Shown: positions 6,955 through 23,734 of the stretch, piece by piece
Position numbering within the stretch: position 1 is the stretch's first letter
Layout of the letters: each line of letters begins with the position of its first letter
NCBI GenBank assembly: GCA_964523265.1
Contig: CAZFXQ010000005.1
Span: forward strand, 1 to 36,234
Direction: 5' to 3'
DNA: 36,234 bases
From: an uncultured Muribaculaceae bacterium
Lineage (GTDB): Bacteria > Bacillota_I > Bacilli_A > RF39 > UBA660
The notes under the pieces: generated by a model
The model's database searches: none
What the model was told of the DNA's origin: nothing
Seen by the model: the letters and a program-made list of their open reading frames with translations, nothing else
Program-made: the position numbers and the translations under genes

Positions 6955-6988
6955 AAAGGAAGAATTATTTTAAAATAATTCTTCCTTT
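6955..6988. terminator. bidirectional terminator between convergent genes
   Basis: Perfect 17+17 palindrome aaaggaagaattatttt/aaaataattcttccttt, flanked by A/T runs. Confidence 0.7.
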
Positions 6989-7406
6989 AATTTATATATC
7001 CATTTGTTTTAAATCTATCAATTGTTTCTTGTTTTGTTTTTTCACCGACAATTCTGTTTAGTGTCGTTTCTTCTTCACCATCTTTTATAAAAATAACAGT
7101 AGGTGTTCCGCTGACATTTAGTATACTTTTAAATTCGCCGTACTCACTTGTTGTTAATTTTGTGTTATCTAGATGTAATATATCAATATCATATTCATTT
7201 AAAACACTTGTAAGTACTGGCTTATAACTTTGACAATGTGAACAATCCTTGTTACCAATGTAAAGTACAAAACTTTCTTTATTATTTAACCTTTCTTTTA
7301 AATTACTATAGCTAATTTCTGTTATGTGGTTTTCTTCTTTTCCACACCCACATATTAAAAACGCAACTATTATTACCAATATAAATAATTTTGCTAGTTT
7401 ATCCAT
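6987..7406 (-). CDS. membrane-tethered thioredoxin-like protein (probable lipoprotein)
   Basis: N-terminal hydrophobic segment ending LICGC (lipobox-like). CSHC active-site motif and a GTPT cis-Pro loop typical of the thioredoxin fold. Confidence 0.85.
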   Translation of the reverse strand: MDKLAKLFILVIIVAFLICGCGKEENHITEISYSNLKERLNNKESFVLYIGNKDCSHCQSYKPVLTSVLNEYDIDILHLDNTKLTTSEYGEFKSILNVSGTPTVIFIKDGEEETTLNRIVGEKTKQETIDRFKTNGYIN

Positions 7407-7449: not shown

Positions 7450-7479
7450 TTGACACATTTTTTTAAAAAATGATATAAT
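7450..7479 (+). promoter_or_regulatory. promoter with extended -10
   Basis: TTGACA (7450-7455), an 18-nt spacer ending in TGa, then TATAAT (7474-7479). Confidence 0.5.
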
Positions 7480-9195: not shown

Positions 9196-9224
9196 TTGAC
9201 AAAATAAATAAATTGATATACAAT
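9196..9224 (+). promoter_or_regulatory. near-consensus promoter for the small pilin-like gene
   Basis: TTGACA (9196-9201), a 17-nt spacer, then TACAAT (9219-9224). AGGAGG RBS lies before ATG 9251. Confidence 0.55.
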
Positions 9225-9250: not shown

Positions 9251-9637
9251 ATGAATATTAGTAGTATTTTTAGTATTTTGACTACAACTACAACAAGAAG
9301 TGGTGTTGGCTCAACTAATTTTAATTGTACTACACAATTAGAAGGTGTTATTGCTATTGCAGGTTTTGTGTTGAAAGTAATTCAGTATGCTGCACCAATA
9401 ATCTTAATTATATGGGGATCTATTGATTTGATTAGAGCAATAACTGCAGGTAAAGAAGAAGAAATTAAGAAGAAACAAGGAATACTAATAAAAAGAGCGA
9501 TAGCAGCGGTAATATTATTCTTTGTTCCACTTTTAGTAAGTACACTTCTAGGGTTAATTGGTTCTACTGATTGGAGAAGTTGTTGGAATGCAAACAAAGA
9601 TAAACCTTTACCAACAGCCGGCGAAGTACCAAATTAA
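9251..9637 (+). CDS. small two-helix membrane protein, VirB2/TrbC pilin-like (T4SS)
   Basis: 128 aa. Two hydrophobic helices are joined by a charged loop (SIDLIRAITAGKEEEIKKKQGILIKRAIA). It has its own promoter and terminator. It heads the T4SS cluster and shares this domain with the C-terminus of the next ORF. The pilin assignment rests on topology and context only. Confidence 0.55.
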   Translation: MNISSIFSILTTTTTRSGVGSTNFNCTTQLEGVIAIAGFVLKVIQYAAPIILIIWGSIDLIRAITAGKEEEIKKKQGILIKRAIAAVILFFVPLLVSTLLGLIGSTDWRSCWNANKDKPLPTAGEVPN

Positions 9638-9649
9638 AATTAATAGTTA

Positions 9650-9678
9650 AAAAAGAGTTCATATTGTGAACTTTTTTT
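9650..9678 (+). terminator. Rho-independent terminator
   Basis: agttca (9656-9661) pairs with tgaact (9667-9672), extended by A/T pairs, followed by a T7 run. Confidence 0.5.
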
Positions 9679-9757
9679 CATTTTATATAAAAAATATGTT
9701 TTAATTATCTTAAAAAAATGTTATCATTATAGTAAGTATAGTAGATGAGGTGTTTGT

Positions 9758-10621
9758 ATGAGAAAATTAAGTAAGCTGGTACTATTTATGATATTTGTAA
9801 TGTTTGTTGTTACTAATAAGGTAATAGCAGATACTTGTGTTGGTAAAATTACTGAAAGTGAAAGAAGTGGTAGCCAGGTTAAGGAAACTGTTACATGGAA
9901 TTGTGATGATCCAAAATATCAGAATACTTGTAACTTTAATATAGAAATCGAAGATACAAAATTTATACTTTCTTTTTATTGTAGTAATGGTAAATTAGGA
10001 AGTGCAACAATATATCCTTCTGATGTTTCAGATTGTAGTGAAGTGGGTACAGGATGGCGTGTTATGGGCGGAAAATCCAAGTTGGATAGAACAGAGTTAG
10101 ATGTTAGAACGTATGATAAGGAATTTTCACCAGATAAATACTATTTGCTTAATATTAGCCCAAAAGCGAAAATATTACCATATGGTTTGTGCATAAGCTT
10201 TGGATCTCCTGTTATACCTGGTACAACGACGAATCCAGGTGAAACAACAAAATCTGTTGGAATATCAAGTGGAACTAATACAGGAGCTAGTGTAACAAAA
10301 AAAACAAAGGTGAATCCTGATCATCCTAATTTGTCTACTTATAAAACAAATACGTTAGCAGAGCCAAGTAATATTTGTACTCAAGAAGTCAAAGATAAGG
10401 CCCACTACTATTGGGCATATATTATGGTAATGGCGCCAATAGGTTTAATGATATTGATATCTGTTGATTTCGTTAAAGCTATTACATCAGGTAAACCAGA
10501 TGCTTTAAAGAAAAGTGGTAATGATGCTGTTAAAAGAGCAATTGCTTGTATTATATTACTTATGTTACCATTTTTATTAGGTACTATATTTAGTTGGTTT
10601 AGTATGAATTTCTGTTTTTAA
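9758..10621 (+). CDS. secreted Cys-rich domain fused to a pilin-like two-helix C-terminal domain
   Basis: Signal peptide (MRKLSKLVLFMIFVMFVVTNKVIA/DT). About 140 aa with multiple Cys, then a Thr/Gly/Pro-rich linker. The C-terminus APIGLMILISVDFVKAITSGKPDALKKSGNDAVKRAIACIILLMLPFLL aligns with ORF 9251..9637. Confidence 0.6.
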   Translation: MRKLSKLVLFMIFVMFVVTNKVIADTCVGKITESERSGSQVKETVTWNCDDPKYQNTCNFNIEIEDTKFILSFYCSNGKLGSATIYPSDVSDCSEVGTGWRVMGGKSKLDRTELDVRTYDKEFSPDKYYLLNISPKAKILPYGLCISFGSPVIPGTTTNPGETTKSVGISSGTNTGASVTKKTKVNPDHPNLSTYKTNTLAEPSNICTQEVKDKAHYYWAYIMVMAPIGLMILISVDFVKAITSGKPDALKKSGNDAVKRAIACIILLMLPFLLGTIFSWFSMNFCF

Positions 10622-10636
10622 GGTTGGTGATTTAAC

Positions 10637-13624
10637 TTGAATATATTATTTAGTTGGCTATCAATACCTAGAATGATTGGTATATGGATAGATTCTATAG
10701 CTTTTTCATTGATTGATAATGCTTATAATTTGATTGTATTTTTTGCAGGAAAAAAACTTTTTGCAGATGGTACCGTAAGTAAAATAATAAGTAGTACTTA
10801 TGTTGTAATTGCATTATTTGCATTATTTAGGCTTGCGTTATTACTTATTAATGCAATGATTTCACCTGATAGATTATATGATTCTAAAAATGGTATTGTT
10901 AAAATTGGTCTTAATGTAGTTATAATGTTTGTACTATTAGTTATTACACCTTTACTTTTTAGTGAAGCAAGGGATTTACAAGAATTTATTGTAAAAGAAA
11001 ATTTTATTGGTAAGATGTTTGGATTGGGTGTTACTAGCTTTGGGACTTATGTCGATGATGATGATGATCCGAGTACACCAGCACCAACAGCGGATGAATA
11101 TAATCCCGGTATTATAATGCAAAAAATGGTAATTAGTGCATTAATATATCCGGATGAAAGATTAGTGAATGATGATGGTACACCAAATGGTGAATGTACC
11201 GGAAAATGTGATGATATTGTTACTGATTACAAAGATATGATGGATGGTGATTATAAAGTTGATTATGGGTGGTTATCTAGAAAAATAACGGTATCTGTAG
11301 ATGTTGGTGATGAAGAGGTTTACGTACTACATTATTACTTCATAGTAACACTTGCTGTTGCTGGATTTATTGCATATATATTATTTTCATTTGCAATTGA
11401 TATTGCTGTTCGTAGTGTAGAACTCGCAGTTTTAGAGATATTATCACCACTTTTTATAGTAACATATATAGATCCTAAGTCTGCTAAATCAGGGCCATTT
11501 CATAATTGGCTTACGACAGTTGGTAAAACATATGTTAGTTTATTTATAAAACTGGCCATAGTTTCAATTATGCTTGTATTAATAACACTAGTTGAAGACA
11601 TAGATTTATCTGGTGGAGGATTGTTAGCAAAAATAATAATGATTTTCGCGATATTAATATTTGCTAAAAAAGCACCAACCTGGATATCTAATATGATAGG
11701 AATTAAAGATAGCGAAGGATTAGGTGGACTTAATATTGGTAAAAAACTAGCTGGAGCTGCTTTAATAGGTGGTGCAGCACAAAATGCATTAAATAAAGGA
11801 AAGAATGCGTTAGCAGGGGCGGGGTTAGGTTTAGCTAAAAATGCTCATGCATATAGAAAAGCAAAGAAAAGTCAATTAAGTGATTCTGATGATAGAGCGA
11901 TGGATAGAGTTAAGTCTAGATATCATGATAATCGTGAAAGTTCAGGTAGAATAAAATCAGCACTATCTGCTGTTGGACAATCATATTTTAAAGATGCTGG
12001 AAAAAATATGAAAAATTGGGGTAGTACATTTGCAGCAGGAGCTGCAGGAGCTTTAACAGGAATCACTTCTGGAGCAAAGAGCGGTTATGAATCAAAGGAT
12101 ATAAAAGATATTAATTCTAAAACTAAAGCTACGGCAAAAGCTGCTGTTGAAAGATATGCTCCTGGATATCAATCAATACCATCAAGAGCAGCAGAAAAAG
12201 CAGGAGATGTTATAAATAAAGTTGCTAATGCGCCATTTGGTGGTGCGACTGCTGTTGAAGACCAGCTTCAAGAAGCAAGGAAGAAGAAAGCTGCAAACGA
12301 AAAAGCTAAAGCATATTTTCCTGGATTTAAAGTTGATAGTAACGGAGAAAGAAATAAAATTCAAAATCCAGTTAAAGTTAGTGAGGCAAAAGCCGTTGTT
12401 GATAAAGTTAATGCTGATGCATTAAAAGGAACAGGAATTAAATTTTCAAGTTCTGCAAAAGAAGGTATTGTTGGTGCAATGGCTGTAAGTAGATTAACGA
12501 AAAATTCAGATGGAACATTTAGTTATAATGGACAATCTGTATCACTTTCAAGTGATGGTATAAGTGTTAATGGTGGTCCAAAGATGTCTTATTCTGATTT
12601 CTGCAAGAACAATAACATAATGAGTGTAGCAGGAGAAAGATTTGCTGAATCATGTTCTCGTGAAATTGCGACTCAAAACCTAACTAGATATGATTCAAAT
12701 ATAAAAGAAATTGCATCAAAGAAAGAACTTGCTGCACAAGCTGAACAACAAATATTAAGTTTCCAAGCTAATATGAAAGCAACTCGTGGTGATGCAGCAT
12801 ATGAAAGTTTATTAAGATTAGATGCAGCTCAAAAAGCAAATGTTGGAAGTTCTATTACTAATAACACTCAATATATGAATGCAAAAAATAACCTTGTTAC
12901 AGGTTTTGGTAATGAAATGATAAATGCTGAAAGTAATCTAGATAGTGCAATGAAAGCATTAGTTACAGCAAGATCATCTGGAGCTACTAAAGAACAAATT
13001 ACTGAGTTGGAAAACAATGTTAATGTAGCAACAGAAGAAAGAAATAAAGTAAGATTAAATATATCAAGAGAAAATCAAATGGAGATTGAAAAATTCCAGG
13101 CGGATTTAACGTCAGCTCGTTCTTCTGGAGCTACTCAAGAACAAATTACGGAAATTGAAAACAACTTGAAAGCTGCTACAGAAAAGAGTGATAAATTTAA
13201 AACTTTAGTTAAAGAAGTGGATGCATATGAGGAATTAAATGGTTATACAGATGCGAGTGGTGTAGAATTAAAAGTAGGTGCAATCAAGGCTGTTGATAGT
13301 ATTCCAGGTGTTCAACAAGGAACTGCACAAGCATATATGAGAGTTACTGCAACCAGAGATGATGCAAATAATAAGGTTTCAGAACTTACTGAAGAAAGCG
13401 AAAAAATTAAAGATGAAATTATTACTGATCTTGAAAATAATGGTGATAAATCAGCTTATAGACCTGAAGATTATGATGGAACTGTGCTTGAAGCCTTTGT
13501 TAAGGATGCAAGAGGTAATTATGTTGTAAATCCAGAATTTTCTCGTGTTATATCAGCAGCTAGTACACAAGAATCTAAAGCTAAAGAAGCTTTGAGTAAA
13601 GCAACAGAAAAGGATAAGAAATAG
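10637..13624 (+). CDS. VirB6/TrbL-like polytopic T4SS channel protein with a roughly 630-aa hydrophilic coiled-coil extension
   Basis: TTG start after GGTTGGTGA. The N-terminal 350 aa or so contain at least 6 hydrophobic helices. The remainder is Ala/Lys/Glu/Ser-rich with an internal repeat. It sits directly upstream of VirB3/VirB4-like genes, as TcpH, PrgH and Orf15 do in Gram-positive T4SS. Confidence 0.6.
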   Translation: MNILFSWLSIPRMIGIWIDSIAFSLIDNAYNLIVFFAGKKLFADGTVSKIISSTYVVIALFALFRLALLLINAMISPDRLYDSKNGIVKIGLNVVIMFVLLVITPLLFSEARDLQEFIVKENFIGKMFGLGVTSFGTYVDDDDDPSTPAPTADEYNPGIIMQKMVISALIYPDERLVNDDGTPNGECTGKCDDIVTDYKDMMDGDYKVDYGWLSRKITVSVDVGDEEVYVLHYYFIVTLAVAGFIAYILFSFAIDIAVRSVELAVLEILSPLFIVTYIDPKSAKSGPFHNWLTTVGKTYVSLFIKLAIVSIMLVLITLVEDIDLSGGGLLAKIIMIFAILIFAKKAPTWISNMIGIKDSEGLGGLNIGKKLAGAALIGGAAQNALNKGKNALAGAGLGLAKNAHAYRKAKKSQLSDSDDRAMDRVKSRYHDNRESSGRIKSALSAVGQSYFKDAGKNMKNWGSTFAAGAAGALTGITSGAKSGYESKDIKDINSKTKATAKAAVERYAPGYQSIPSRAAEKAGDVINKVANAPFGGATAVEDQLQEARKKKAANEKAKAYFPGFKVDSNGERNKIQNPVKVSEAKAVVDKVNADALKGTGIKFSSSAKEGIVGAMAVSRLTKNSDGTFSYNGQSVSLSSDGISVNGGPKMSYSDFCKNNNIMSVAGERFAESCSREIATQNLTRYDSNIKEIASKKELAAQAEQQILSFQANMKATRGDAAYESLLRLDAAQKANVGSSITNNTQYMNAKNNLVTGFGNEMINAESNLDSAMKALVTARSSGATKEQITELENNVNVATEERNKVRLNISRENQMEIEKFQADLTSARSSGATQEQITEIENNLKAATEKSDKFKTLVKEVDAYEELNGYTDASGVELKVGAIKAVDSIPGVQQGTAQAYMRVTATRDDANNKVSELTEESEKIKDEIITDLENNGDKSAYRPEDYDGTVLEAFVKDARGNYVVNPEFSRVISAASTQESKAKEALSKATEKDKK
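12968..13189 (+). repeat. intragenic direct repeat (two 75-nt copies, 147-nt period)
   Basis: 12968-13042 encodes ARSSGATKEQITELENNVNVATEER and 13115-13189 encodes ARSSGATQEQITEIENNLKAATEKS. Confidence 0.8.
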
Positions 13625-13638
13625 GAAGGGGATAAAGT

Positions 13639-13953
13639 ATGAATCAATATTTAATAGCAGCTAATTCTAAAAAAGGGCAATTGATATTTAGTATATTTAG
13701 AAAAATTGATTTGATAATAGCTTTGGTAGGAGCAGGAACAACATTTATATTATTTTTAATATTTGAACCTTCCTCTTTATCATCTGGAATAATTGTGTTG
13801 TTACCACTTTTGGTGTGTACAACGCTTGTTATGCCAATACCTAATTATCATAATGTATTATGTGTACTTAAAAACATATATAATTTTTACTTTGTTGATA
13901 AGAATCAATTAGTATGGAAAGGATGGTGTGCTAAAGATGAGTACAAAGAATAG
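13639..13953 (+). CDS. small 2-TM protein, VirB3/PrgI-like
   Basis: 104 aa with two adjacent hydrophobic helices. It lies immediately upstream of and overlaps the VirB4 genes. GGAAGGGG RBS. Confidence 0.5.
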   Translation: MNQYLIAANSKKGQLIFSIFRKIDLIIALVGAGTTFILFLIFEPSSLSSGIIVLLPLLVCTTLVMPIPNYHNVLCVLKNIYNFYFVDKNQLVWKGWCAKDEYKE

Positions 13954-14476
13954 TGTAAATACAGAAAGTTTTGTTCCAATAAAATCAATTGAGAATAATA
14001 TGATTAATCTTGATAGTGGTTTTATGGTAGCGGGTGTTAAGGTTGCTCCTAAAAACATATTTATATTAGATGAAGGTGACATGTTTGGTGTTATTGATGG
14101 ATTAAAGGATTTTTATAATACGCTTGATTTTGAATTTTGGTTAGTAGTTGCAGATAGACCTGTTGATATATCAGTTTATATTGCAGAACTTCAAATGATG
14201 TATAACAAGTCACAAAATCCAGTTATTCGAAAACTAATAAATCAGGATCTTAAAAAAGCAGACGATTTTAGTGATAATGTTTCTGATATTGAATTTTATT
14301 TCTTATTCAAGGATAAAAATCTTGAACTAATAAACAAGAAAGTAAGACTTATGATAAATGGGCTTGCAAATGCGGGATTATCATCTAGTCAAGCTAATAA
14401 TGAAGATTTAAGAAGTATACTTGAGAATTTCTTGAATGGTGGATTAAAAACTGAATTTGGGACGGTGTTAGCATAA
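13928..14476 (+). CDS. VirB4 N-terminal-domain protein (first half of a split VirB4)
   Basis: FVPIKSIENNMINLDSGFMVAGVKVAPKNIFILDEGDMFGVIDGLKDFYNTLDFEFWLVVADRPVDISVYI follows the N-terminal pattern of Gram-positive VirB4s (PrgJ/TcpF/Orf16-type). The track start is GTG 13928; ATG 13937 is an alternative. Its stop overlaps the next start (TAATG). Confidence 0.6.
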   Translation: MLKMSTKNSVNTESFVPIKSIENNMINLDSGFMVAGVKVAPKNIFILDEGDMFGVIDGLKDFYNTLDFEFWLVVADRPVDISVYIAELQMMYNKSQNPVIRKLINQDLKKADDFSDNVSDIEFYFLFKDKNLELINKKVRLMINGLANAGLSSSQANNEDLRSILENFLNGGLKTEFGTVLA

Positions 14477-16269
14477 TGGCAAATAATATAAAAAAGGAGC
14501 TAGCTCCTAAAGGTCTAGAATTTAAACCAGCAGAATTTGTTATAAGTGATAAATGGTGTACTATTTTAACCGTAGTTTCATTTCCAAAATGGATATCACC
14601 TGGTTTTTTAGCAGGTATTACTAATACACCAGGTGTAAAAATGGTTATTAAACATATTCAATTACCATTTTCAGTCATGTCTAAAATGCTTAACAAACAA
14701 TTAACTGATTTAAGAGTTCAATATGAAAAAGAAAATGATAAAACATATCAAGAACAATTAAGACAAGATTATGATTCATTAAATGATTTTATTCAAATGA
14801 TTACGGCTAATCAAGCTAGAATATTTGATTTTCAAATGCACTTATTTATTTCTGCGGATTCTAAAGAAGAATTAGAACAGAAAAAAGTACAAATGAAAAA
14901 TTACCTAATTTCTATGGAAATGAGAGCAATACCATTAAGGTTTGAGCAAAGAAAAGTATTAAAATCAATACTTCCTATCTTTCCAAAACAAGATATTGAA
15001 GATCAAATAGGTACTCCTATTACATCTCCAACGGTTGCAGCTATGTATCCTTTTATATTTGATAGTTTAAAAGATCCAGGGCCATCTTGCCTTCTTGGTA
15101 CAGATTTTTCTGGAGGTGTTGTTTTATTTAATCAATTCTTATATCAAACAAGAAAAGAGTTTAATAGAACTAATGCTAATATGATTATTTTAGGTACAAC
15201 AGGATCAGGTAAATCAACTGCGGCTAAATTACTTTTAAGAACACATATTAGAAATGAATATAAAGTTGTTGCAATAGATCCTGAAGGTGAGCTTGAAGAA
15301 ATGGTAGCTCGTATGCAGGGTGATTTCATTGATTTAGGTAAGGGTGGACAATATGGTATGATTAATCCACTTGAAGTAATACTTGAAGCTGATGATGAGG
15401 AAATAAAAGATGGATTAGGATATACAGTTCTTACGAAAACATTACAGTTTTTAAAGGCATTCATGAAGTATTATGATCCAACTATAACTGAAGATGTACT
15501 TACAATGTTTAGTGAAATAGCTCAATTAACTTATCAACGTTTTGGTATTTCTTTTGAAAGTGATTTTTCAAGTTTTACCCCAGATCAATATCCAACATTT
15601 TCAGATCTTTATGAAACTTTGGTTAGAAGACTTGAAGCATATGGTGATCAATTAACACACGAAAGAAATATACTTGAGACGCTAGAACTTAAAATAAGAC
15701 CTTTGGTTAAAGAATTGAAATTCTATTTTGATGGACATACAACGATAAGACCAACTACTAAATTTATTGTTTTTAATATAAGAGATTTAATGAATGCTGA
15801 TGAAAATATCAGAAATGCATTGTTCTTTAATATATTAAAATATGCATGGTCACATTGTTTAGATAGAACAATTAATACAATACTTATGGTAGATGAGGCA
15901 CATATATTATTATCTGGTAATAACACAATAGGAGCAGATTTCTTGGCACAAATACAAAGACGTGCTAGAAAGTATAATAGTGGTACAATATTTATTACTC
16001 AACAACCATCAGATTTTGCAGAGCCTAGTGTAATAACTCAAGGTAAAGCAATATTTGATAATGCATCATATTATCTTATTATGGGACTTAAGAAACAGGG
16101 GGCAGAGGATTTATCAAAATTAATTGATTTAAATGATCAAGAAAAAGAAAGTATTAAGAAATATAATCAAGGTGAAGCATTACTTGTTTGTGGAGCTAGA
16201 AGAATGCGTATTGATGTTATTGTTACAGAAGCAGAACTTGATTCATTTGGTTCTGGTGGAGGATTATAA
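14476..16269 (+). CDS. virB4: VirB4-family T4SS ATPase (C-terminal two thirds)
   Basis: LAPKGLEFKPAEFVISDKWCTILTVVSFPKWISPGFL (VirB4 middle region). Walker A GTTGSGKST and Walker B LMVDEAH. IFITQQPSDF distal motif. Confidence 0.85.
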   Translation: MANNIKKELAPKGLEFKPAEFVISDKWCTILTVVSFPKWISPGFLAGITNTPGVKMVIKHIQLPFSVMSKMLNKQLTDLRVQYEKENDKTYQEQLRQDYDSLNDFIQMITANQARIFDFQMHLFISADSKEELEQKKVQMKNYLISMEMRAIPLRFEQRKVLKSILPIFPKQDIEDQIGTPITSPTVAAMYPFIFDSLKDPGPSCLLGTDFSGGVVLFNQFLYQTRKEFNRTNANMIILGTTGSGKSTAAKLLLRTHIRNEYKVVAIDPEGELEEMVARMQGDFIDLGKGGQYGMINPLEVILEADDEEIKDGLGYTVLTKTLQFLKAFMKYYDPTITEDVLTMFSEIAQLTYQRFGISFESDFSSFTPDQYPTFSDLYETLVRRLEAYGDQLTHERNILETLELKIRPLVKELKFYFDGHTTIRPTTKFIVFNIRDLMNADENIRNALFFNILKYAWSHCLDRTINTILMVDEAHILLSGNNTIGADFLAQIQRRARKYNSGTIFITQQPSDFAEPSVITQGKAIFDNASYYLIMGLKKQGAEDLSKLIDLNDQEKESIKKYNQGEALLVCGARRMRIDVIVTEAELDSFGSGGGL

Positions 16270-16361: not shown

Positions 16362-19300
16362 GTGGATAACAAAAAATTTGATGATGATTTAATTGATGTA
16401 AGTGATAAAAAAGATATTAATATTGATATTGATATAAATGTTAATAAGTCCAATAATTTTAAAAATAATTATAATTTACCTAAAAGCGAAACAAATATAT
16501 CTAAACATGATAATTCACAAAGTGGTTTTCAAAATAATAGACCAATTAATCCATATAATAATTCTGGAATAAATAAGTTGAATGATAATAAGAAATTAAG
16601 TAGCTTGAATAATAGGGGTGTTAATAATCAAAGAAAACCGTTTAATAATAATCTGGGTAGTAGATTAAATAATATAAATGATCAAAATAATGTTGATCAA
16701 AAAAGTAATCAGAATAATAATGGTTTTAAAAATAATAATGTTAATGATAGGGGTTTAAAACAAGGGGTAAATAGTGCAGCAGACAGAATAAGAAATGCTC
16801 CTCAAAATATTAAAGATAAAATTAATGATACAAAAGACAAAGTTAATAATACTAAAGAAAAAATTAAAAATACGTCAGAAAACGTAAAGAATAAAGCAAA
16901 TAACGCAAAGGAAAAATGGAACAATAGACCAAAGAGTTTTAATGAGTTTAAAGATAGGGCAAAAAGCAGTTTTAAAAATGCTGGTCCAAAATTAGCAGAT
17001 AAAGCTAAGCAAGGTGTAAAAAAAACAGGTCAAAAAGCATTAGATGAAGTAAAAGATACAGCAAAAGAGAAAGTAGAAAGTTCTAGTTTAGGACAAGCTG
17101 TTAATAAAACTAAAGATGTTATTGATAAAACAAAACACACAGTTGAAGTAACAAAAAAAGCATTTAAAGCAATAATTACTTTTTTAAAAGCTACATTTCC
17201 ATGGCTCGAAATTATACTTGTTATATTGCTATTCATATTTGCAGTAATAATGTTAGTTAATTACTTATTTCCTGGGTTGTTTGGTGATGTAAAAAAAGAT
17301 GATGAGTATGATAATTATGCTGATGTTGATCAAAAAACATTAGAAAAAATGAAAGATGTATTTAATAAGCATTCTAGCGAAGATGCTACGCTTGCTATGG
17401 CAACAGTTGTGTTTCCGTATTATACACAGTTGCATGATGGTAACGTTTCTAGTTATTTGACAACAACAGATAATGAAGATAGTGGTGAAGAAGATCCGGA
17501 AGTAGATGTTGAAGAAGAATTTGATGGAGATGATGTTGAAAAGGATGAAGGTGACCAAGAAGCTGATGATATGTATTTGTTACCATTTAGAAATAGTAAG
17601 GTAAGAAAAAGATTGGGTGATGTATTAGATGCATTGGATGGTGGTCAAGATTCTTGGGAAAGCTATTTGAAAGATAAGTATTTTAAAAACGATAAAGGGT
17701 TTAAAAAGGAATTTGATGAAAAAGTTATAACAGGATATAACGGATATAAAAAATTGTTTGAGGCACAAATAGATGATGCTTATGAAGATAATCTTGAAGA
17801 TGCTATAATTAAGAATTTACAAGATATTAAAGATTTCTTTTTACCATATATATTTGATCTTGAATATTTAATATGTTCATCTGAATCTACTAATATTGGT
17901 TATAGTGATGCTGGTGGGATAATCCAAGGTGAAGCTTATGTTATTATAAAAGATACAGGTGTTGGAAATCCATTTAGTACTCTTAAAAACGCACCAGATT
18001 TACATGGTACAGGTAGCGATCCATTAACTTTAAAAAGGTACGTAATGGGTGTATCATATGCTGAAATTGGTGACGAAGTAAAAAATGAACATGCTGCAAA
18101 GGCAGACATGATAGCTTCTAAAAGTTTTGTTTTGGGTAGAATAGCTTCAGGTGCACCAAATTCTGTTGGTATGGGATATAAATATGATGTAAAAGACGGG
18201 AAAACATACTTTTATATGAGAGGTAATACTTCAGATCAAGATTTTTGTGATATATATGAAGGTTGTAAAACTGGTAGATTTGCTAAAAGTAATATTAAGT
18301 CTACATCAAGTTTTGCTCAAGAAAGTAAGAAGAATGTAAAAGATCCACTTCCTGCTGAAGATATAGCTAATTTGGAAAAATGGTATGATGAGGTAGCTGG
18401 TGAATTTATTTACAATGAAAGTATGAAAGCGTTTGGTGGTTCACAATATGATACATTTAATAAAAATTGTGTTAAGGGTTATTGTTTATCTCAAAAGTTT
18501 GCAAGTAAATTAGCAAAGCAAGGTCATGATTATAAATATATTTTATATGATAGTATAAATGGAGCATTTAGTAGAGGTTATGTTGTATATAATATGGAAA
18601 CTCAACAATTATCAGTGTCATCTACTAATTGTGTAGAAAAATTAGCAGGTGGTTGTTCAATTGCATCGGAAGATTTTATATATTATTCACAAAGACAATA
18701 TAATGATGCAAATGTTGGTTATTGTGGAAGGGTTGATCCATCAGCAGAAGAACCACCAACAATAAGCACAAGTGGTTGTGGAGTAACTTCTATGGCTATG
18801 ATTATTTCTAATTTAACAGATGAGAAGCTTGATCCTTTAGCTACAATGAATGAAGCGGCTAACGCTTCATCCCCAGGACCATATTGTGGTGAAGGAATAG
18901 TTGGTACAAAACCAGAGTATTATAGATATTCTGCTAGTAAACATGGTATAACATATTCATCAGTTTTATCAACAGCAGAAGATGCAGAAGAAAAAGTAAA
19001 AACCACGCTAAACTCTGGTGGACTTGTTATTGCTAATGTAGGAAAAGGATGGCAACGAAAGGATCAAGGACCTGTTGAAGTAGGACATTATTTGGTTATA
19101 CGAGGTGTGGCTGGAGATGGTAGTTTACTTTTAGCAGATCCTATGCTTAAAGAAGCATCTTTAGATCCAACTGATTTAATTTCTTTTGCTGATATTGTTT
19201 CATTTATGAAAGATAAAGAAAGATATTTCTTCTTATTTACAAGTGCTAAATCAGACGAAATAAAAGAAAAATATTGTGGTCTTTCGGTAACTGGTGAACC

Positions 19301-19820
19301 AGGTGTTGCAACAGGGCATTTAGGTAATCCATTAGATCCTAATGATACAACCAGGGATTTTTCAAAAGAACCATGTCGTATGGGTGGAATTCTTTATAGT
19401 TCTGCTACAGCATTTCCTAGATATTGTAGTGGTAATCCACATGGAGGCGTTGATTTGAGTTATGTTGTAACTGGAACACCAATTTATGCAATGGATGGTG
19501 GTGTAGTTAGTGCGTCTAATGATGAAACAGGTTGGGGTAAACACATTATAATAGACCATGGTAATGGACATCATACGGTATATGCTCATTTTAGTAGTCG
19601 TTCGGTTCAAAAAGGTGAGAATGTTGCTAAGGGTCAATTAATTGGTTATAGTGGAAATAGTGGTAATTCAACAGGAGAACATTTGCACATTGAGTTATGG
19701 AATGATTCTTTATATAGCAAAAATGGTAGAGATGCAGGTAAGTATAGTGAAGGAAAGGGATTAATGAATCCAACTAAATATATAAATTCTAGCACAAGTT
19801 ATGTTGGACAAACTCGATAG
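16362..19820 (+). CDS. T4SS-associated multi-domain peptidoglycan hydrolase (C39-like cysteine peptidase plus M23 metallopeptidase, possibly SpoIID-like)
   Basis: GTG start after AGGTGGTG. About 270 aa of Asn/Lys-rich low complexity precede one TM helix (about 17170-17270). An acidic stretch follows. LKRYVMGVSYAEIGDEVKNEHAAKADMIASKSFVLGR is tentatively SpoIID-like. SGCGVTSMAMIISNL ... VGHYLVIRG is a C39-like Cys/His pair. M23 motifs are HGGVD (19439-) and GEHLHIELW (about 19678-19701). Confidence 0.85.
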   Translation: MDNKKFDDDLIDVSDKKDINIDIDINVNKSNNFKNNYNLPKSETNISKHDNSQSGFQNNRPINPYNNSGINKLNDNKKLSSLNNRGVNNQRKPFNNNLGSRLNNINDQNNVDQKSNQNNNGFKNNNVNDRGLKQGVNSAADRIRNAPQNIKDKINDTKDKVNNTKEKIKNTSENVKNKANNAKEKWNNRPKSFNEFKDRAKSSFKNAGPKLADKAKQGVKKTGQKALDEVKDTAKEKVESSSLGQAVNKTKDVIDKTKHTVEVTKKAFKAIITFLKATFPWLEIILVILLFIFAVIMLVNYLFPGLFGDVKKDDEYDNYADVDQKTLEKMKDVFNKHSSEDATLAMATVVFPYYTQLHDGNVSSYLTTTDNEDSGEEDPEVDVEEEFDGDDVEKDEGDQEADDMYLLPFRNSKVRKRLGDVLDALDGGQDSWESYLKDKYFKNDKGFKKEFDEKVITGYNGYKKLFEAQIDDAYEDNLEDAIIKNLQDIKDFFLPYIFDLEYLICSSESTNIGYSDAGGIIQGEAYVIIKDTGVGNPFSTLKNAPDLHGTGSDPLTLKRYVMGVSYAEIGDEVKNEHAAKADMIASKSFVLGRIASGAPNSVGMGYKYDVKDGKTYFYMRGNTSDQDFCDIYEGCKTGRFAKSNIKSTSSFAQESKKNVKDPLPAEDIANLEKWYDEVAGEFIYNESMKAFGGSQYDTFNKNCVKGYCLSQKFASKLAKQGHDYKYILYDSINGAFSRGYVVYNMETQQLSVSSTNCVEKLAGGCSIASEDFIYYSQRQYNDANVGYCGRVDPSAEEPPTISTSGCGVTSMAMIISNLTDEKLDPLATMNEAANASSPGPYCGEGIVGTKPEYYRYSASKHGITYSSVLSTAEDAEEKVKTTLNSGGLVIANVGKGWQRKDQGPVEVGHYLVIRGVAGDGSLLLADPMLKEASLDPTDLISFADIVSFMKDKERYFFLFTSAKSDEIKEKYCGLSVTGEPGVATGHLGNPLDPNDTTRDFSKEPCRMGGILYSSATAFPRYCSGNPHGGVDLSYVVTGTPIYAMDGGVVSASNDETGWGKHIIIDHGNGHHTVYAHFSSRSVQKGENVAKGQLIGYSGNSGNSTGEHLHIELWNDSLYSKNGRDAGKYSEGKGLMNPTKYINSSTSYVGQTR

Positions 19821-21373: not shown

Positions 21374-23734
21374 ATGAAGCTAAAATTTAGAGCGGAAAAG
21401 AAGGATATAATTGCCTTTTTATGGGGTTGTTTACTACTTTTAATGGTTGTTTCAATGATAGTTGTTAATTTGTATCATGCAACTGATGAATCAACTGGTG
21501 TAAATGAAAACACAAGATGGACATTTAATTTTATAAAGGGATTATTTCCACCTTATTTACCATATACAATTTTATTTTGGGTTATTGCTATAATAGCAGT
21601 ATTCGCTAGTTTATCTTCATACTTTTTTGAAAGAGAAAAAGGATTTGGATTTAAAGAAGGTAAAGAAGAAAAAGGATTTGGTAGATTTGCCAAAGAAGAT
21701 GAATACAAAAAATTTGAAAATGTAAAATCTGTTGAATTAACTGCCAAAGAGGCAACAGCGGCAGGGTTCCCATTAGTTTACGATAAGAAAAAGGGATTAG
21801 TATACGTTGATGATGGTGAATCTCATTCACTTGTAATAGGTGCAACAGGTTCTGGTAAAACGCAAATGGTTATTAATCCTTTAGTTAATTATTTAGCTAA
21901 AAAGGGTGAATCAATGGTTATTACTGACCCTAAAGGTGAGATATACGAAAAAAATGGAGAAATGTTAAAAGATAAGGGTTATGATGTTATAGTTGTTAAC
22001 TTTCGTGATCCACAAAATGGTAGTTGTTGGAATCCATATACACTTCCTTATAAATATTATAAAGAAGGTAACCAAGATAAAGCAAATGAGTTGTTAAATG
22101 ATATGGCTATAAACATTGCATCAGATGAAAAGGCTGATGATCCATTTTGGACTAATTCAGCAGCAGATTATTTAACAGGTTTATCACTTGGTATGTTTGA
22201 GGATGCTTCTGAAGATGAAATTAGTATTTCAACAGTTAACTTAATGATGACTGTTGGTGATGAAAAAATGGGGGGTTCTACTTACTTAAAAGAGTATTTT
22301 AGAATGAAAGACCCTGCATCACCAGCAGCAATTAACGCACTTGGTACAATAAATGCACCTCAAGATACTAAAAACTCAATAGATTCAGTTTTAAAGCAAA
22401 AAATAAAAGTTTTTGCAGTAACTCAAAACTTATCTGAAATGTTATCTAGAAGTGATTTTGATATGGAAACTATAGGAGAAAGAAAAACTGCTATTTTTAT
22501 GATAATACAAGATGAAAAAACAACATATCATGCACTTGCTACAATATTTGTTAAACAATGTTATGAGTCTTTAATTGCTGTTGCTCAAAGACATGGAGGA
22601 AAACTTCCTATTAGAACTAATTTTTTGCTTGATGAGTTTGCTAATATGCCTAAATTCAAAGATATTACAACAATGATTACAGCGGCACGTTCAAGACAAA
22701 TAAGAATGACTATGATAGTACAAAACTTTGCACAGTTAAAACAAGTTTATGGTAATGAAGATGCCGAAACAATTCGTGGTAACTGTGGTGACATATTATA
22801 CTTACTTACTGGTGAATTATCAGCTTTAGAAGAAATTAGTAAACTATGTGGTGACAAGGTAGTTAAAGTTGGTAAGGATAAAAGAGAAGAAACAAGACCT
22901 TTAATTACAGTTACAGAACTTCAAAGATTTAAACAAAATGAAGTTTTAGTATTAAAGCATCGTCTTCCACCTCTTAGAACAAAGTTCTTGCCATTTTGGG
23001 ATACGGATCTAGGTTATGGAAAAAACGCAAGTAAAGTTCCTAAGGCAGAGCTTCCATCTCATGAGCAGATACCAATTAAATTATTTGATATAAGGGAGTT
23101 TGTAAAAAAGAAGAAAGAAGAACAAAGAAGTGGTATGTTTGGGGGAGATAGTCCATTTGGTAACCAAGGTGGTAATATGTTTGGTCCAAATCCTTTCGGT
23201 GGTGTACCTATGAGTCCATTTGGTAATAATAATTCTGGTATGGATTTTAAGCCATCTATTAATCCATTTGAGAATAATGGTAACATTAATCAAATGCCAA
23301 CTTCAAATCCATTTGAAAGTGGTAAATCACAATCAGATGATTTGGAAATAGATGATATTATTAAGAAAATTGATGAAAGAATAGCAGAACTTGAAAAAGA
23401 AGAAGAACAAAATAAGAGTAACTTAAGTAAAGAAAGTACATCAAATGAAGAATCAGACATAAACGATATGATTAAACCATCTAGTGTTGATAAAATAGAT
23501 TTCACTAATTTTTCAAATAATAAGCATGATATAATGGATGATTTTATGGAAGATTTATCAGATGATGATGAAGATGATACTTCTGTTGAATTAAAACCAG
23601 ATGAAACACAAGTGGATGCTACATTTATTCCAAAGAATAATGATCAAATAGTTTATAAAAACGAATCAGAAATAGATAAAATTATGAATGAAAAAGATGA
23701 AAATGATGATATTTTTGATGACTTTTTTGAGTAA
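21374..23734 (+). CDS. virD4: type IV coupling protein (VirD4/TraG family) with a disordered NPF/FG-rich and acidic C-terminal tail
   Basis: Two N-terminal TM helices. Walker A GATGSGKTQ and Walker B FLLDEFANMP. The tail from about nt 23107 is Gly/Asn/Pro/Phe-rich and then Asp/Glu-rich. Confidence 0.88.
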   Translation: MKLKFRAEKKDIIAFLWGCLLLLMVVSMIVVNLYHATDESTGVNENTRWTFNFIKGLFPPYLPYTILFWVIAIIAVFASLSSYFFEREKGFGFKEGKEEKGFGRFAKEDEYKKFENVKSVELTAKEATAAGFPLVYDKKKGLVYVDDGESHSLVIGATGSGKTQMVINPLVNYLAKKGESMVITDPKGEIYEKNGEMLKDKGYDVIVVNFRDPQNGSCWNPYTLPYKYYKEGNQDKANELLNDMAINIASDEKADDPFWTNSAADYLTGLSLGMFEDASEDEISISTVNLMMTVGDEKMGGSTYLKEYFRMKDPASPAAINALGTINAPQDTKNSIDSVLKQKIKVFAVTQNLSEMLSRSDFDMETIGERKTAIFMIIQDEKTTYHALATIFVKQCYESLIAVAQRHGGKLPIRTNFLLDEFANMPKFKDITTMITAARSRQIRMTMIVQNFAQLKQVYGNEDAETIRGNCGDILYLLTGELSALEEISKLCGDKVVKVGKDKREETRPLITVTELQRFKQNEVLVLKHRLPPLRTKFLPFWDTDLGYGKNASKVPKAELPSHEQIPIKLFDIREFVKKKKEEQRSGMFGGDSPFGNQGGNMFGPNPFGGVPMSPFGNNNSGMDFKPSINPFENNGNINQMPTSNPFESGKSQSDDLEIDDIIKKIDERIAELEKEEEQNKSNLSKESTSNEESDINDMIKPSSVDKIDFTNFSNNKHDIMDDFMEDLSDDDEDDTSVELKPDETQVDATFIPKNNDQIVYKNESEIDKIMNEKDENDDIFDDFFE

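Follow-up and report, generated by a model that had tools for sequence, protein, structure and literature searches.

Two adjacent genes in a 36,234-nucleotide (nt) stretch of contig CAZFXQ010000005.1 (assembly GCA_964523265.1; hereafter the window), one short and one extended by a large N-terminal portion, encode in our reading VirB2-type (PF18895-like) pilin subunits of a chromosomal type IV secretion system (T4SS) of the monoderm type in small-genome gut Bacilli, a reading to which we assign a probability of about 0.68. The open reading frames (ORFs) of the two genes, called with Table-11 as were all others, lie on the + strand (the long one at 9758-10621, 287 amino acids, aa), as does every ORF of the co-directional block that comprises the pilin genes, VirB6, a 104-aa protein, a split VirB4, a wall hydrolase and VirD4, and that Pfam places with htpG on one side and rnc/smc on the other (Table 1). 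The genome holding the window is 1.10 Mb in 110 contigs, with 25% GC and 89% completeness. The assignment rests on a Pfam profile, on topology and on gene context, not on a proven structural match to pili already known.

The two ORFs share one domain, as the original prediction had claimed, with residues 26-100 of the short copy aligning to residues 207-278 of the long copy in BLASTP (37% identity, 59% positives, E 9e-14), and the peptide match that it had quoted is correct. This similarity is far beyond chance, and dozens of related genomes show the same arrangement of a short and a long copy. The VirB2-like topology that had been proposed for the shared domain was likewise borne out, since AlphaFold2 models, hydropathy and counts of basic residues all give two transmembrane (TM) helices joined by a short basic loop in both proteins. 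In the short copy, hydropathy places TM1 at about residues 32-61 and TM2 at about 76-107, with 6 K/R versus 3 D/E in the loop, and AlphaFold2 predicts a helix-loop-helix with helices at 30-66 and 72-103 (mean predicted local distance difference test score, pLDDT, 73.7). The hairpin of the long copy has TM1 at 217-244 and TM2 at 256-284 by hydropathy, 5 K/R versus 2 D/E in its loop, and modelled helices at 209-244 and 247-280 (pLDDT 70-84). Because the N-terminus of the long copy is signal-like, its loop is placed inside and both of its ends outside, and we infer from the predicted topologies that this type of hairpin would sit in the membrane with its loop facing the cytoplasm and its two termini the exterior.

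To place the domain in a family, relatives were drawn from 80 loci of species-representative genomes and four metagenome loci, from which a domain profile recovered 104 different short proteins and 57 different long ones. PF18895 (T4SS_pilin, gathering score 26.6 bits) was by far the commonest Pfam family among them, matching at E <= 0.01 in 67 of the 104 short (best 9e-8) and 29 of 58 long relatives (best 4.2e-8), with the other families appearing as scattered chance matches. Homologues of the short protein fell into 29 clusters, two of which (P0010 and P0011) carried a precomputed PF18895 match. PF04956 (TrbC/VirB2) had zero Pfam matches for either window protein, and among relatives it matched only 2 of 104, weakly (best E 0.0015). 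By sequence profile, the clade's pilins belong to PF18895, of which the window's two proteins appear to be divergent members, and the shared domain is assigned to neither a holin nor a transporter.

Gene context links this domain to the secretion apparatus, as the original prediction had expected for related genomes. The order of pilin gene or genes, VirB6, 104-aa protein, VirB4N, VirB4C and, later, VirD4 is kept on one strand in 56-60 of 85 loci. Where the flank past the first pilin gene extends to 7 kb or more, as in 55 loci, 49 have VirB4 further downstream and in the same orientation, the median distance being 4.3 kb. In the window itself, VirB6 starts 16 nt past the long pilin gene and VirB4 lies 3.3 kb downstream of it; a VirB6 homologue stands 3' of the pilin genes in 60 related loci. 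Among the arrangements of pilin genes, short-long leads with 36 loci, ahead of a lone short gene (20), short-short (11) and short-long-long (6). In a set of 201 genomes from the window's order (nearly all belonging to a single family, 98 genera, 0.6-1.6 Mb), the pilin domain occurs in 195, with 1-16 copies each, and VirB4 in 192, mostly as a single copy that is 65-73% identical between genera; the two are found together in 190 genomes, neither is found in 4, and only 7 are discordant.

Of the roughly 223 Bacilli genomes sampled beyond this family, just 2 carry the pilin domain, and tblastn gave zero pilin matches at E <= 0.1 in 72,556 PLSDB plasmids, so that it does not count among known plasmid genes. 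Its carriers are uncultured gut Bacilli, including 'Tenericutes'/Mycoplasmatota metagenome-assembled genomes, for example Clostridium sp. CAG:710, CAG:417, Ca. Caccenecus and Ca. Scybalousia. The two relaxase families searched, PF03432 and PF02486, are absent from the window's genome and present in 3 of 13 and 0 of 13 genomes of its genus, respectively. Given this clade-wide spread, the absence from plasmids and the scarcity of relaxases, the T4SS with its pilins looks like a core, vertically inherited chromosomal trait of the clade and not like mobile-element cargo. Copy number can be high, with up to 16 pilin-domain genes in some related genomes: one genome (G017, e.g. C1:78007-82890) has tandem arrays of head-bearing forms of 340-555 aa outside the T4SS locus, and some relatives (examples among L044-L046 and L049) have arrays of 3-6 short forms inside it. 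Many profile matches contained in-frame stops, which most likely reflect profile overrun into AT-rich spacers past ORF ends and were rejected as evidence of recoding.

The short gene has the signals of a separate transcription unit. Its start codon is fixed by an AGGAGG that stands 6 nt upstream of the ATG, and the promoter and terminator that had been predicted for it were both found (Table 1). The promoter is a consensus match in 25% GC DNA in which promoter-like sites are no more numerous than in shuffles. The hairpin at the 3' side of the gene was matched in folding by 0 of 200 shuffles, and a stricter consensus terminator scan missed it because its stem is AT-rich. In 57 of 76 distinct related loci, a hairpin with a T-run likewise stands 3' of the short gene, with the hairpin sequence itself not conserved. 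With its own strong promoter and its terminator-like hairpin, the short gene presumably supplies an abundant major subunit. Its product begins with a hydrophilic tail of about 25 residues without an h-region or Sec-type signal peptide, and the tails of its relatives are still shorter (e.g. MFILA..C). A class III (prepilin peptidase) motif of the G/FTLxE type is absent from the N-termini of both pilins.

A pair of cysteines that brackets the hairpin is practically invariant. Measured from the conserved helix-1 Pro, the first Cys lies 14-33 residues to the N-terminal side (mode 23-24) and the second 59-89 residues further on (mostly 59-74) in 150 of 151 distinct pilin-domain proteins, the sole exception being a protein cut by a contig end, and the pair is invariant also in alignments A1, A4 and A6. 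In the window, the pairs are C26 with C111 (short copy) and C207 with C286 (long copy), at similar distances from the loop. Both Cys would lie on the outer side of the membrane, where a disulfide may tie the ends of the hairpin together. Head-to-tail covalent cyclisation of VirB2 and TrbC is established, and the putative disulfide could be its functional analogue. A thioredoxin-fold protein is encoded divergently from the T4SS block, and a homologue keeps this divergent place in 13 loci of the nearest relatives, L004-L007 among them. As a putative thiol-disulfide oxidoreductase outside the cytoplasm, it may act on the exported T4SS proteins that carry Cys.

The long copy is built as had been predicted, with a signal-like segment, a head containing six Cys (positions 27, 49, 58, 75, 93 and 145) and a linker with 4 Pro (T12 G5 N5 K5 S5 P4 over aa 152-200) preceding the hairpin. 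The head has no Pfam match, and in phmmer searches of 1.84 billion representatives its only relatives were P0052, P0060 and P0147. The closest full-length relative, P0052, scores 27.6 bits to fn3 (cut-off 25), and BLASTP with the head only gives 50% identity to it over just 26 aa (E 6e-5); by this sequence trail, the head is possibly a divergent FN3-like beta-sandwich. No VirB5/TraC-type family match was found for the long copy in Pfam or NCBIfam, its head being predicted to be beta-rich, and direct reading of the sequence found no LPXTG, the C-terminus being ...FSMNFCF. A short GC-rich inverted repeat (GCCCAC...GTGGGC-type) at 10400-10416 was scored as a possible terminator in either orientation. 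Since it is part of the coding region of the long pilin gene (KAHYYWAY) and has no proper T-run, it probably arose by chance.

Heads of this kind vary greatly on a constant hairpin. The 57 distinct long forms range from 145 to 581 aa and all combine a signal-like N-terminus, ending in V-x-A-type sites, with a C-terminal pilin domain. Searching the same 1.84 billion representatives with the whole long copy, phmmer found 579 clusters at E <= 1e-3, nearly all of which match only its last 80-100 residues; a word-indexed homologue search found only P0030, and exhaustive phmmer was needed for the rest. Few heads carry Pfam domains, namely fn3 (3), Big_2, Big_3_2, Pur_ac_phosph_N, Lactamase_B (one, E 9e-11) and a choline-binding repeat (one), with the recognised ones mostly immunoglobulin (Ig)-like (fn3, Big_2, Big_3_2). 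Because one head has a metallo-beta-lactamase-fold domain (Lactamase_B), some heads may be enzymes and not adhesins. In a tree of the hairpins, the short/long state needs 14 changes, versus 42.8 with shuffled labels, at least 4 of them forced by supported branches, and the two copies of the window belong to different clades, each supported and of a single state. These clades and state changes point to the window pair being old paralogues, with heads gained or lost several times.

A different head on nearly the same hairpin is present within the window's own genome. P0030, a second head-bearing pilin of 331 aa (C9:3895-4890, minus strand), is encoded away from the T4SS locus between a DinB-like gene and a phosphoribosyltransferase gene; its hairpin is 99% identical to that of the long copy, and the two heads are unrelated. 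At the DNA level the two genes have a repeat of about 309 nt in common (Table 1). In four metagenomes, the ends of Logan contigs coincide with positions 10313 and 10621, and depth between these is about twice as high; metagenome contigs L002 and L003 have the P0030 head joined to the VirB6 of the T4SS locus. These two contigs may be real recombinants or assembly chimeras, the switch falling within about 300 nt of perfect identity and the Logan contigs simply breaking at the repeat ends, and we make no claim of head switching. Taken together, the heads would appear to be exchangeable modules that differ between species and within a genome while the hairpin is kept. Pfam and PDB searches with the P0030 head found nothing significant; SGNH-hydrolase-like motifs (GDS, G, IND, DEFH) were seen in it by eye only, a reading that we do not claim.

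These observations suggest a mechanism in which the short protein, made in excess from its own strong promoter with most transcripts ending at the hairpin, would serve as the abundant major subunit. It would insert in the membrane with its loop inside, probably by a YidC-type route since it is without a Sec signal, and would there be stapled by its disulfide, perhaps with help from the neighbouring thioredoxin-fold protein. VirB4 would then extract subunits at the platform formed by the VirB6-like protein, the presumed assembly platform for the pilins, and these would be stacked into a pilus or a short wall-crossing stalk. The long protein may enter by Sec, join the assembly through the same hairpin at low stoichiometry and show its head outside or at the tip as a contact or adhesion module, the job of VirB5. 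A more far-reaching and frankly speculative version, in which we place little confidence, is that a domesticated, relaxase-poor T4SS in at least 95 genera builds a VirB2-type pilus that works as a modular display, with interchangeable heads (adhesins, enzymes) on stapled hairpins, the heads being swappable by recombination through the hairpin-coding repeat and determining the partner cells or surfaces to which the bacteria attach. If this modular pilus were real, the bacteria might depend on contact and perhaps live as epibionts, as Patescibacteria do, a lifestyle that could go some way to explaining their resistance to cultivation, and a VirB2-type pilus would no longer be thought unique to Patescibacteria among monoderms.

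Several results weigh against a pilin identity or against parts of the mechanism. The short copy reaches PF18895 at 22.1 bits (E 1.6e-4), under the cut-off and over profile positions 17-71 of 71, and the long copy has no PF18895 match at E <= 0.01, with the near-identical P0030 hairpin at E 0.046. The cleaved leader peptide typical of VirB2 and TraA is missing from the short copy. A PDB profile search with the pilin alignment recovered no solved VirB2, TraA or CedA pilins, its matches (E >= 0.028) being rejected as chance alignments to TM5-loop-TM6 helices of G-protein-coupled receptors, and Foldseek of the short-pilin model against PDB gave nothing at E <= 0.001, a null that is uninformative rather than negative because helical hairpins are poor Foldseek queries. 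Further, AlphaFold2 models the head at a pLDDT of 30-50, with strands at 27-75 (10-row alignment), conservation is the sole basis of the proposed disulfide, and a search for RNA runs holding the locus found none. Finally, a role confined to the membrane is plausible because the literature has monoderm T4SSs working without pili (PMC4027160, PMC12857230).

This last point leads to the alternative that survives best, which we consider unlikely on balance, namely that the hairpins are VirB2-family T4SS parts without an extracellular fibre, with the short protein embedded in the membrane as part of the translocation channel, like VirB2 in those Gram-negative systems that form no pili, and the long proteins as surface adhesins or enzymes for which the hairpin would serve only to anchor them and to dock them beside the apparatus. 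Reviews describe Gram-positive T4SSs as lacking pili and relying on surface adhesins (PMC4027160, PMC12857230), some heads look enzymatic (one with Lactamase_B), and the several head-bearing copies far from the T4SS locus in many genomes (P0030 and the G017 arrays) fit a general surface anchor. On the other hand, the strong, separately terminated unit of the short subunit (57 of 76 loci) suggests stoichiometric excess, as is typical of a polymerising subunit, a putative Cys staple on the outside and a hydrolase of the wall would suit something that extends beyond the membrane, and Patescibacteria, which have the same pilin family, are suspected of building pili (PMC12857230). None of these points is decisive.

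It is also conceivable, and in our judgement improbable, that the long proteins are cargo, the hairpin being a handle for extraction by VirB4 and VirB6 and the head being delivered onto or into a partner cell. The extreme diversity of head content on a constant C-terminal module, the occasional enzyme-like fold (Lactamase_B) and the presence of VirD4 in a genome from which the two relaxase families (PF03432, PF02486) are absent speak for such a reading. Known T4SS effectors, however, are recruited from the cytoplasm by VirD4 via C-terminal signals, whereas the long proteins have Sec-type signal peptides and are membrane-inserted, and the recognisable heads are mostly Ig-like or FN3, suggesting scaffolds or adhesins over toxins. 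That the two are unrelated small membrane proteins (holin, bacteriocin-immunity protein or transporter fragment) standing beside T4SS genes by chance could draw on the weak, unspecific profile matches of short two-TM proteins (7tm_1, DUF621, BPSS1780), but is effectively refuted by synteny and co-occurrence, with PF18895 the commonest match among relatives, a position 5' of VirB6/VirB4 fixed in about 50 independent species, a presence or absence that parallels VirB4 over the 201 genomes, and no phage or bacteriocin genes near the pair in Pfam scans of neighbouring ORFs.

Among the remaining genes of the block, VirB6 and VirB4 match families of Mycoplasma integrative and conjugative elements (ICEs). 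Besides its Pfam match, the VirB6-like protein matches NCBIfam pLS20_p028 and Mycoplasma ICE TM families (ICE_Mbov_0396_TM, E 5e-5); its C-terminal extension of about 630 aa is hydrophilic, and in L004-L007 the gene calls divide the counterpart region into two genes, of 364 aa and 436 aa. The 104-aa protein gave zero matches in Pfam and NCBIfam searches. VirB4_plasma, a Mycoplasma ICE-type family, matches the first VirB4 ORF at E 1.2e-15 and the second at 2.3e-104, and because the split into two ORFs is kept in 56 related loci, it is a conserved gene organisation and neither a frameshift error nor a pseudogene. Just 5' of ORF 7497, with which the block begins, a site at 7450-7479 has 12/12 sigma-70 consensus matches and an extended -10 (TG), and going by this sequence match it is probably the main operon promoter.

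Table 1. Features of the pilin genes and the surrounding T4SS block in the window (positions from its first nucleotide).
Feature	Position	Strand	Remarks
Thioredoxin-fold protein	6987..7406	-	PF00085 E 3.7e-9; weak match to F-plasmid TraF PF13728; divergent from T4SS block
Sigma-70-like promoter, TTGACA-17-TACAAT	9196..9224	+	11/12 consensus matches; consensus match only
Short pilin-like protein, 128 aa, two-TM hairpin	9251..9637	+	PF18895/VirB2-like; Cys26 (9326-9328), Cys111 (9581-9583)
Terminator-like AT-rich hairpin, 13 bp, U-run at end	9650..9678	+	folding free energy (dG) -10.9 kcal/mol, z -2.74
Long copy, signal-peptide-like N-terminus, aa 1-24 MRKLSKLVLFMIFVMFVVTNKVIA, then DT	9758..9829	+	hydrophobic segment 1-29
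Long copy, presumed extracellular head, aa 25-151, six Cys	9830..10210	+	predicted beta-strands
Long copy, low-complexity linker, aa 152-206, rich in Thr, Gly, Ser, Asn	10211..10375	+	pLDDT about 30
Repeat of about 309 nt common to ORF 9758 and P0030	10313..10621	+	one synonymous base differs; identity stops at stop codon
Long copy, C-terminal pilin hairpin, aa 207-287, ends ...NFCF + stop	10376..10621	+	Cys207, Cys286
VirB6/TrbL-like polytopic membrane protein, long C-terminal extension	10637..13624	+	Pfam TrbL_4 E 3.4e-9
104-aa protein between VirB6 and VirB4	13639..13953	+	position of VirB3-like protein; same-place homologue in 56 loci
VirB4 ATPase, two overlapping ORFs, 13928-14476 (182 aa) and 14476-16269 (597 aa)	13928..16269	+	NCBIfam VirB4_plasma
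Cell-wall hydrolase, C39-like and M23 domains (VirB1 role)	16362..19820	+	Peptidase_M23 E 6e-27, Peptidase_C39_2 E 2.4e-8
VirD4-type coupling protein	21374..23734	+	Pfam T4SS-DNA_transf E 4.6e-58; downstream in 33 related loci

The base identity of the domain as a T4SS_pilin is already captured by Pfam. What appears to be undescribed so far is that it is nearly universal in a clade of Bacillota, that it occurs fused to heads and that it carries the putative Cys staple; text searches of the literature turned up nothing on T4SS or pilins in RF39/RFN20-type gut Bacilli. The clade would be a second monoderm lineage, independent of the Patescibacteria, for asking if a T4SS pilus can exist where there is no outer membrane. 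It would also illustrate from nature how such a pilus might become specific in its adhesion in a system that lacks VirB5, hint at how these abundant, uncultured gut bacteria live, and possibly provide a scaffold for surface display.

Comparison with known systems begins with the finding of Guglielmini et al. that systems of the mating-pair-formation class FATA (MPF-FATA) are without pilin homologues and monoderms without VirB2 (PMC4027160). The single recent exception is the Patescibacteria (PMC4027160, PMC12102498, PMC12857230), in which PF18895 and PF04956 revealed pilin arrays, mostly without relaxases, to Quiñonero-Coronel et al. (PMC12102498). The T4SSs described for Ca. Southlakia epibionticum and TM7x (PMC12102498, PMC12857230) resemble ours in having several divergent pilin paralogues of the same Pfam family side by side, in a monoderm MPF-FATA-like apparatus with VirB4, VirB6, a VirB3-like protein and VirD4, and in being chromosomal, usually relaxase-free and lineage-wide in very small genomes. 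They differ in host, which here is a gut Bacillota (Bacilli) lineage, and in the large N-terminal secreted heads found here, fusions that go unmentioned for Patescibacteria in the available parts of the two papers (PMC12102498, PMC12857230).

Set beside the classical pilins VirB2 (Ti plasmid), TrbC (RP4), TraA (F) and TrwL (R388), the hairpins have a similar mature size of roughly 70-120 aa, two helices with a short basic loop, and a gene beside virB3/virB4-type genes, with the likeness in sequence being at profile level only. Unlike those proteins, they belong to a host without an outer membrane, and the short copy is without a long cleaved leader; where VirB2 and TrbC have peptide cyclisation, a disulfide would take its place here. 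For VirB4 and VirB6 of the window, the nearest relatives that have names are the Mycoplasma ICE genes (Mbov_0396 and Mbov_0397 families), for which no pilin is described in the available review text. Those ICEs are mobile elements, whereas the cluster here is flanked by htpG and rnc/smc and occurs almost throughout its clade.

As a proposed low-copy, outward contact module, the head invites comparison with VirB5, TraC (pKM101), CagL and the variable TrwL/TrwJ copies of Bartonella Trw, which also combine a contact part of variable sequence with a conserved core machinery. Multiple variant copies are thought to widen the target range (PMC12857230). There is no homology to VirB5, which is a separate soluble helical protein, whereas here the contact module is fused to a VirB2-like hairpin. 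We know of no Gram-negative system with such a fusion of pilin and contact module, VirB5 doing that job there. The joining of a polymerisation domain to a bulky functional module, which the filament then displays, does have a parallel in PilB of Streptococcus sanguinis with its grafted vWA module (bioRxiv 10.1101/2021.01.27.428410). PilB, however, belongs to type IV pili, a filament system without relation to this one, and has a class III signal peptide, a single N-terminal helix and a C-terminal module, whereas in the protein described here the module stands N-terminal to a two-helix domain of the T4SS pilin kind.

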